Of a stretch of 64,000 bases of DNA, positions 13,804 to 14,529 are shown in pieces (position 1 is the first letter of the stretch; every line of letters starts with the position of its first letter). The notes beneath the pieces were generated by a model. That model had not been told where the DNA came from and did not search any database. It worked only from the letters and a program-made list of their open reading frames with translations. The stretch comes from Saccostrea cucullata (Eukaryota). Location of the stretch: the NCBI RefSeq assembly GCF_032062105.1, contig NW_026936290.1, forward strand, positions 248,001-312,000, written 5' to 3'. The translations under genes were made by a program, and so were the position numbers.

Positions 13804-14529
13804 ATGAGCTCTTTTAATCTTGATGACGAGTTGACCTGTCCAATATGCCTGGAATTGTACGACTGTCCCATCTCGTTACCTTGCCTCCACAGCTTCTGTA
13901 CAGAGTGCTTACAAAACCTTACACACAGCAGTAGTCCCAGCACCGTGACGTGTCCACAATGTCGGGCTGACGCCCAGGTCCCCACAGGGGGTGTAAAGAA
14001 TTTCCCGAAAAATTTCCATCTGGCAAATATTGTACAGAAAGTTAAACAGCACAACGAGCAGAAAGAATTAACAGAAATGAAAAATAAAGATGCCCAAAAT
14101 GACCAGTCTGGTATGGTAGAGTATATTCAAGGTGCGGATTTCCTACTTGCATTGTATATATATTGAGACTGTTTTATTTCATAAAGTTAATACGCTTAAT
14201 TGGTTTTGATTGTTCTAATTTTTGTTGAAAACGTATTTTTTGTGACAGAGCCAGATGAACGTCCGTCTTCATATGATTTTGTTCCGCATTATCCTCCAAG
14301 ATTTAAGCGCCATCACGGTCCCCCGTGGCGACATCACCCCCCACCGCCACCTGGTTGTCATGGAGGACACCCCCACCACCCTCCTCCTCCTCCACACGGA
14401 CCACACCCACGTCATCCCTGTGGGCCACGTGGACGTCATCACCCGCCATGGCATCCGGGCCCTGGACACCCTCGGCACCACCCTCCGCCCTGGCATCATT
14501 TTAGAGGCCCACCACCTCCTCCTGAATAA
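13804..14529 (+). CDS. TRIM-type C3HC4 RING protein with a His/Pro-rich C-terminal tail, ~195 aa; coding exons 13804-14110 and 14249-14529, non-coding exon ending at 13490
   Basis: LDDELTCPICLELY..PISLPCLHSFCTECL...CPQCR...FPKNFHLANIV is a classical TRIM RING. A phase-1 GT..AG intron joins it in frame (G|AG) to EPDERP...RHHGPPW...PPPPPE*. AATAAA overlaps the stop, with another at ~14586. Confidence 0.85.

Follow-up and report, generated by a model that had tools for sequence, protein, structure and literature searches.

TRIM ligases are normally switched on by clustering, which is brought about by their coiled coil, their B-box and lattices of substrate. Other RING ligases, such as Hakai/CBLL1, RNF38/44 and Arkadia, carry Pro/His-rich disordered regions. 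His tracts target proteins to nuclear speckles, and metal-triggered ubiquitination through a His-rich loop takes place both in plants (IDF1 with IRT1) and in mammals (ZIP4). Most TRIM RINGs have been reported to depend on dimerisation or on assembly to a higher order (PMC11992055, PMC9732051 and PMC7752041, each accessible in part). According to the accessible text of PMC11992055, some TRIMs are pseudoligases, inactive TRIMs that repress active ones have been described, and TRIM6 and TRIM22 have lost the linchpin residue. The His-rich region of vertebrate HRG is characterised, in the available part of PMC5372734, as a Zn/pH-switched ligand-binding region with a Zn/pH-dependent charge and with micromolar metal affinities.

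Here we describe a conserved gene of the Ostreidae for a protein of 202 aa, which is spliced in a close relative of the sequenced oyster. The gene lies on the forward strand of a stretch of 64,000 nucleotides from Saccostrea cucullata, referred to as the window, whose positions are used throughout. Translation of the corrected gene model (donor 14131, acceptor 14249) gives, letter for letter, the S. cucullata protein XP_062583559.1 (P0013).

Contigs of four sequencing runs (X1 to X4, out of 23 listed, all with small shares) were aligned to positions 13200-15200 at 80% likeness. X1 and X4 are recorded as RNA, and X2 and X3 are guessed to be RNA. Since they are about 94% identical to the window over the exons, the contigs come from a relative and not from this genome. 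An earlier note on this DNA had joined the RING exon to the tail at 14110/14249, and this model is open (195 aa). However, positions 14111-14129 are read through in all four runs, so that the donor 14110|14111 is 21 nt too early and the GT at 14111..14112 (+), although in frame, is unused in the transcripts seen. The intron is instead a GT-AG intron of 117 nt at 14132..14248 (+). Run X3 shows a GT..AG skip of exactly this length, a single X2 contig of 671 nt covers 13755-14131 and 14287-14543 and spans the 14131/14249 junction, and depth is 0 at 14138-14204 in all four runs. The X3 joint is a listed one, besides 15 further joints beyond the listing; X1 and X4 contribute the read-through and no listed joint. 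The RING exon is therefore spliced to the tail that had been proposed, with the same frame and acceptor, yet from a donor 21 nt further on.

Within the X2 contig, the 23 letters between the two blocks resemble the start of the last exon; the contig is 15 nt shorter within 14249-14286, an in-frame deletion at the linker-tail boundary in the relative. Pairs of records from M. gigas (P0007/P0029) and O. edulis (P0009/P0035) vary in a few residues where the exons meet, which shows that slippage of splice sites is common in the linker; minor use of the GT at 14111 as a donor is therefore conceivable.

The coding exon at 13804..14131 (+) comprises residues 1-109, that is the RING, its C-terminal helix and the first part of the linker, and ends at a phase-1 donor (14131|14132); the last coding exon at 14249..14529 (+) provides residues 110-202 and the stop. 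A phase-1 intron before the tail is also found in M. gigas and C. virginica when genomic read-through ORFs are compared with the spliced proteins. The picture of a compact gene with intact signals is retained as to the acceptor 14248|14249, the stop codon at 14527-14529 and the AATAAA, but not as to the donor. The AATAAA at 14525..14530 (+) overlaps the stop codon, and a second one lies at 14586-14591. The X2 and X4 contigs stop at 14543, a weak hint of the 3' end, as contigs cannot show ends. On the 5' side, 13755-13803 is covered as exon by three of the four runs; the 5' UTR part of the RING exon, 13727..13803 (+), is covered by contigs of X2, X3 and X4 from 13743 or 13755 to 13803. We infer that its acceptor is probably the AG at 13725-13726, which follows a poly-T tract. 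A non-coding first exon, as claimed previously, is plausible from the consensus donor at 13490|13491; the putative exon at 13440..13490 (+), whose start is not fixed, falls within 13200-13735, where depth is 0 in all four runs.

Five neighbouring genes may serve as synteny anchors. These are a PHD-finger gene, SHPRH-like by eye (1743-5550, minus strand), a gene which by eye we take to be akirin-like (6621-7499, plus), ZC4H2 (28219-29244, minus; Pfam zf-C4H2), a GH99 endo-mannosidase (35267-37602, minus; Pfam) and an RS/Pro-rich gene, SCAF4/8-like by eye (43519-52414, plus). Just downstream of the RING gene, at 14809-15055, lies an interspersed repeat that is covered very deeply by many divergent contigs in all four runs; Rfam gave 0 matches in 12000-17000, this repeat included. 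Upstream, a dispersed repeat is clustered at 11671-12900 in both direct and inverted orientation, and it recurs near 9800 and at 33500-34400. An ORF of 173 aa at 61246-61764 (+) resembles, by eye, part of a tyrosine recombinase from a mobile element and has no Pfam match at 0.01.

The TRIM-type RING that had been read from the ATG at 13804 is confirmed as a C3HC4 domain (Pfam zf-RING_UBOX, E 3e-10) that is followed by neither a B-box nor a C-terminal domain. Its core runs from C12 to C53, directly before the linchpin R54 (13837..13962, +), as placed by Pfam, the invariant ligands and the structural model. All 8 zinc ligands and R54 are invariant in the 6 aligned orthologues. The RING is modelled with a pLDDT of 87.7 and fits the TRIM2 fold best (rmsd 1.6-1.9), while the nearest solved relatives by sequence are TRIM3 (E 2e-14), TRIM2 and TRIM56; for the full-length protein, AlphaFold on six sequences gave a poor model (pLDDT 52.7). 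In the alignment, TRIM2 R64, E28, L39, H40, P61 and F81 correspond to the invariant R54, E17, L28, H29, P51 and F71. The roles of these TRIM2 residues, R64 being the linchpin, are taken from the accessible part of PMC9732051. The oyster protein departs from TRIM2 at Q52, where TRIM2 has V62, and at L39, where it has Y50. Moreover, D8, E9 and E17 align without gaps to E12, E13 and D21 of TRIM21, with O. edulis having E-D instead of D-E; in the available text of PMC7752041, residues 12, 13 and 21 form the tri-ionic motif, or acidic triad, that is linked to activity as a monomer. Judged by these residues, the catalytic face is intact, and it is by their conservation only that the earlier note's reading as a candidate E3 ligase is supported.

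The dimer interface is less uniform. Residues 71-93 (14014..14082, +) are modelled as the TRIM RING dimer helix alpha3 plus an extension, and L6, F71, L73 and V80 are kept. The helix is partly polar, with H, N or S at position 72 (TRIM2 F82) and an invariant K79 (V89), besides Q52 at V62, and helix alpha1 is short, comprising residues 6-9 only in the model. TRIMs with such defects of the dimer helix and alpha1 can be inactive, as far as the accessible parts of PMC11992055 and PMC9732051 show. A prediction of the RING homodimer scored 0.31 against a mark of 0.32 and was taken as evidence neither way.

P0013 gave no zf-B_box match, and tblastn with B-box-bearing relatives detected no remnant in the window. 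The long antiparallel coiled coil is likewise missing: behind the RING only helix 71-93 is modelled, which is not a TRIM coiled coil, and no TRIM_CC match was obtained. Because both elements are absent, the protein is to be called TRIM-derived and not a TRIM by definition.

The tail comprises residues 118-202 (from 14272, +), with 20 His, 33 Pro, 8 Arg and 1 Lys. The last 73 aa contain 19 His, 2 Cys and many Pro, as given before, the exact count being 30 Pro, and 3 Trp besides. The translation also shows three motifs of the RHH(G)PP(P)W type, which had been described as repeats, but their leading RHH is not conserved across oysters. What is conserved is P-x-W-(x)-H-H together with one Gly-Cys. 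The oyster tail alignment has 30 invariant columns, among them HG-x-x-W (H132, G133 and W136), Gly145-Cys146 (14353..14358, +) and the terminal PPPWHH-x-x-GPP, in which PPPWHH (residues 188-193) occupies 14482..14499 (+). Between genera the tail shows 57-70% identity, the RING 57-73% and the linker 8-28%, so that tail and RING are conserved to about the same degree. Since low-complexity tails align easily, shuffled tails were used as a control: all 20 ordered oyster-oyster pairs beat 300 of 300 composition shuffles, with cross-genus z values of 5.5-10.8. In all seven oyster proteins the number of His in the tail stays at 20-23 while the order of many of them shifts; Arg numbers 7-9 and Lys 0-1. 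The tails are free of acidic residues and net positive, with a computed charge of +3 to +9 at pH 7.4 that increases about threefold, to +18 to +24, at pH 5.5.

For selection, 29 coding differences between the window and the contigs of the relative were classed; they were drawn from 40 listed differences (118 in all), after 2 UTR and 9 repeat rows had been dropped. The tail has 11 synonymous and 2 non-synonymous differences (pN/pS 0.06, p 9e-6). Even in the worst case, with 4 further X2 tail differences counted as non-synonymous, pN/pS is 0.20 (p 0.0014). The RING exon has 9 and 7, respectively (pN/pS 0.19, p 0.0012). By these counts the tail is under purifying selection, and the RING is selected too. 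The overlapping +1 frame of the last exon, which is open over 103 aa, was rejected as coding, as it yields 0 synonymous and 13 non-synonymous differences and has no Pfam match; the old M. gigas model K1R320 likewise reads a frame other than the His/Pro one.

The form of RING, variable linker and tail was found in six oyster species, namely S. cucullata, S. echinata, M. gigas, M. angulata, C. virginica and O. edulis. The orthologues that the earlier note had asked for do therefore exist, transcript contigs cover the gene, and the tail is conserved in its relatives. A RING-only search gave 12 matches among 15 candidates, all named ones being oysters, and a profile search gave 66 matches among 8000 scored. 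The tail itself matched no family. In the ESM Atlas, the tail had no usable match and the whole protein matched RING clusters alone, all of them under 0.9. Metagenome contigs gave 597 pattern matches and viral contigs 48, none of which was confirmed as a related locus.

There is one conserved gene per oyster species, with a second model in C. virginica only. The two C. virginica models, P0008 (LOC144619523) and P0179 (LOC111104786), lie on contigs of equal length and have the RING exon in common, and one of them runs from it into a PF00584 (SecE/Sec61-gamma) region and not into the tail. The second model is either a local duplicate or a chimeric model.

RefSeq gives the gene five conflicting labels: HRG-like, carboxypeptidase Y (the M. 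gigas orthologue), MID2, RNF224-like (the S. cucullata protein) and uncharacterised. P0007 and P0013 match RING families only in Pfam and have no serine carboxypeptidase domain. With regard to HRG, there is no cystatin match among these Pfam results, and the sequence shows neither GHHPH in tandem nor a leader on the N-terminal side of the RING. Besides the protein's own label, no match named RNF224 occurred in the RING, profile, cluster, PDB or Pinctada-query searches. The conserved oyster gene is mis-named, and its annotation can be corrected even if metal or pH is not the trigger.

We found no study of the gene under its accessions and gene IDs in the searchable literature, which consists mostly of open papers whose supplements may use CGI or G identifiers. 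Its names and accessions are absent from the supplements of PMC12064177, PMC5601910, PMC11988029 and PMC11350665, two of which are very small, and the accessible part of PMC4892480 contains nothing on it that we could find. The annotation table of PMC4673431 includes two 'TRIM59' genes, without expression values, and neither could be tied to this gene.

The earlier note regarded the protein as a RING fused to a tail. This is probably the wrong history. An exhaustive RING-only search, with no tail in the query, listed 150 proteins, 143 of them from outside the oyster family, and just one of these 143 has a His/Pro tail. This protein, KAK3090497.1 (P0047) from Pinctada imbricata, ranks first among the 74 listed non-oyster matches of at least 300 aa. 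It is an uncharacterised protein of 440 aa with a RING, a B-box, a His/Pro/Trp tail and a weak coiled-coil match (TRIM_CC below the cut-off). Its RING is 51-54% identical to the oyster RING and its tail is of similar composition, but it keeps the B-box and the coiled-coil region that the oyster gene lacks. Because a full TRIM in Pinctada already bears such a tail, an internal deletion is preferred to a new fusion, and the comparison suggests that the oyster gene may have arisen from a full TRIM by internal loss of B-box and coiled coil. A motif behind the RING, defined after seeing the proteins that it groups, is common to the oyster gene and KAK3090497.1; among 316 non-oyster proteins only 6 have it, and 5 of these are of the Pinctada type. 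In the shuffle test, the Pinctada and oyster tails are alike in composition only (z 0 to 2.5), and in trees built from 89 columns the two RING groups do not come out as sisters; the AU test (p 0.358) does not reject their union, and says nothing more.

Two further tailed proteins came from a profile that included the tail, and were hence selected for it: Mercenaria XP_053376733.1 (P0221), a half RING without the last cysteine pair plus a His/Pro/Trp tail, and P0217, an ENA protein of 245 aa whose single ORF combines a RING with a short helical segment and a His/Pro/Trp tail. The likeness of the Mercenaria tail to that of Pinctada goes beyond composition (z 6.2-6.4), and the P0217 RING is placed elsewhere in the tree. 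Such tracts can arise independently, as fish TRIM25 has a His/Pro-rich internal stretch. A search with the Pinctada protein as query (242-770 aa; 124 matches among 2768 candidates, 120 listed) gave one close match, P0234, which frays after the start of the B-box; no named full-length counterpart from an oyster or another mollusc was among the matches listed, and since the search is word-limited this does not imply absence.

We propose that the gene encodes an intracellular, TRIM-derived RING E3 whose tail serves as a recruitment and clustering module, a reading to which we assign a probability of about one half. Its first part, that the RING binds E2~ubiquitin and is active, with an activity that depends on bringing RINGs together as in other TRIMs, is probable from the conserved residues. 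Its second part, that the disordered and almost lysine-free His/Pro/Trp tail would be the module for recruitment and clustering, seems right on balance, because coiled coil, B-box and substrate domain are absent. Through binding of the P-x-W-(x)-H-H repeats to a partner, to a polyanion or among themselves, the RINGs would become concentrated, and ubiquitin transfer would thereby start at that site.

Given the strict positions of the Trp/Pro motifs, plain docking on a protein would be the main rival. In this possible but less likely case the tail is an adaptor independent of metal and pH, whose Pro/Trp linear motifs are recognised by a partner of the WW, SH3, EVH1 or WD40 kind, or else a His-rich signal to nuclear speckles or other condensates, known targets of His tracts, while the RING is constitutive and perhaps acts as a monomer via its acidic triad. 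The position-specific conservation of PPPWHH, GPxW and GC exceeds what bulk metal binding needs, and the triad of TRIM21 is linked to monomer activity in the available text of PMC7752041. On the other hand, the number of His is kept at 20-23 while their order changes, the tail matched no family and no partner is on record.

Another explanation is a specific form of our preferred one with an immune trigger: the Arg/His tail would bind LPS, nucleic acid or the contents of ruptured phagosomes, and the RING would build K63 chains for autophagy or signalling. The net positive, acid-free tail, the TRIM ancestry and the copper-rich granules of oyster phagocytes (accessible part of PMC12064177) fit this idea. 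We consider it unlikely, as the gene was not found under any known name or accession in the hemocyte single-cell supplements, where other IDs are possible, and as one conserved gene per species, apart from the second C. virginica model, would be unlike a fast-evolving immune receptor. Quite unlikely, too, is a pseudoligase or decoy that binds E2~Ub or hetero-dimerises with the RINGs of full-length oyster TRIMs and damps them, the tail giving localisation only. The polar dimer-helix residues, the short alpha1 and the missing coiled coil would suit such a protein, and precedents are described in the accessible part of PMC11992055; however, the linchpin, the zinc ligands, E17 and F71 are invariant in all six orthologues, whereas TRIM6 and TRIM22 have lost the linchpin. 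An annotation artefact, or the remains of a decaying TRIM that happen to be spliced to an exon of low complexity, is suggested by the conflicting RefSeq names and by K1R320 and LOC144619523, which join the RING exon to other sequence, but is largely refuted and hardly credible in view of the spliced contigs, of an architecture and an intron phase that the genera have in common, and of selection that acts on no frame but the His/Pro one.

Returning to the clustering module, a third and tentative step would let Zn/Cu loading or His protonation set the state of the tail, and the ligase would then be active at leaks of metal-rich or acidic compartments. Such gating of the ligase by metal or pH would be plausible, though less than likely. 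Resting cytosolic free Zn lies far below the micromolar range. Since the affinities of HRG are micromolar, the tail would be expected to switch only under metal overload or where compartments leak. As a weak test, the MRE consensus was searched for in 11500-14700 and not found. Oyster granulocytes and phagocytes hold copper in granules (PMC12064177), and ubiquitination terms rose with the natural Zn/Cu load in M. gigas (PMC13509690); the gene is not named in the accessible text of either paper. A self-contained metal- or proton-gated ligase, in which the tail replaces B-box and coiled coil and Zn/Cu cross-linking or acidification assembles the RINGs, seems doubtful. The relevance to a metal-accumulating oyster that had been raised stands as far as the host is concerned, the protein being an S. 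cucullata record, but a specific link to metal hyperaccumulation is weakened because similar tails occur in Pinctada, Mercenaria and the ENA protein.

If the ligase is gated in this way, the proteins would form a series from a full TRIM with tail (Pinctada) over a RING with short helix and tail (P0217) to a RING with tail (oysters) as its most reduced member, and the oyster protein would be a candidate for sensing leaks from metal granules or phagosomes in oysters that accumulate metal. A natural RING protein of 202 aa with a selected His/Pro tail raises the question of what else can cluster a TRIM RING, and it is small enough for in-tube tests.

Overall, the parts are of known kinds, but the searchable literature has no description of a RING combined with a His/Pro tail in this way, of how conserved the combination is, or of a full TRIM as its probable source. 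The RINGs of TRIM2/TRIM3 (class VII), TRIM56, TRIM5, TRIM21 and TRIM25 resemble the oyster RING as C3HC4 domains with flanking helices and a linchpin Arg. Compared to these TRIMs, the oyster protein has only 202 aa, lacks B-box, coiled coil, NHL and SPRY, and has a partly polar dimer helix and a His/Pro/Trp tail. HRG, the source of two of the RefSeq labels, shares a His/Pro-rich region as a compositional likeness only; it circulates in plasma and has cystatin domains and GHHPH repeats in tandem, whereas the oyster protein is a RING protein without these. Hakai/CBLL1, RNF38/44 and Arkadia are likened by description, with no sequence kinship seen, and are larger, with other RING types and further domains. 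In plant IRT1, according to the part of the literature accessible to us, a His-rich segment is coupled to RING-dependent ubiquitination, as proposed here. In IRT1/IDF1 and ZIP4, however, the His-rich sensor is on the substrate, and the oyster case would place it on the ligase. If metal or pH is the trigger, the gene would encode a ligase with its own His-based sensor, of relevance to the tolerance of oysters to very high Zn/Cu.
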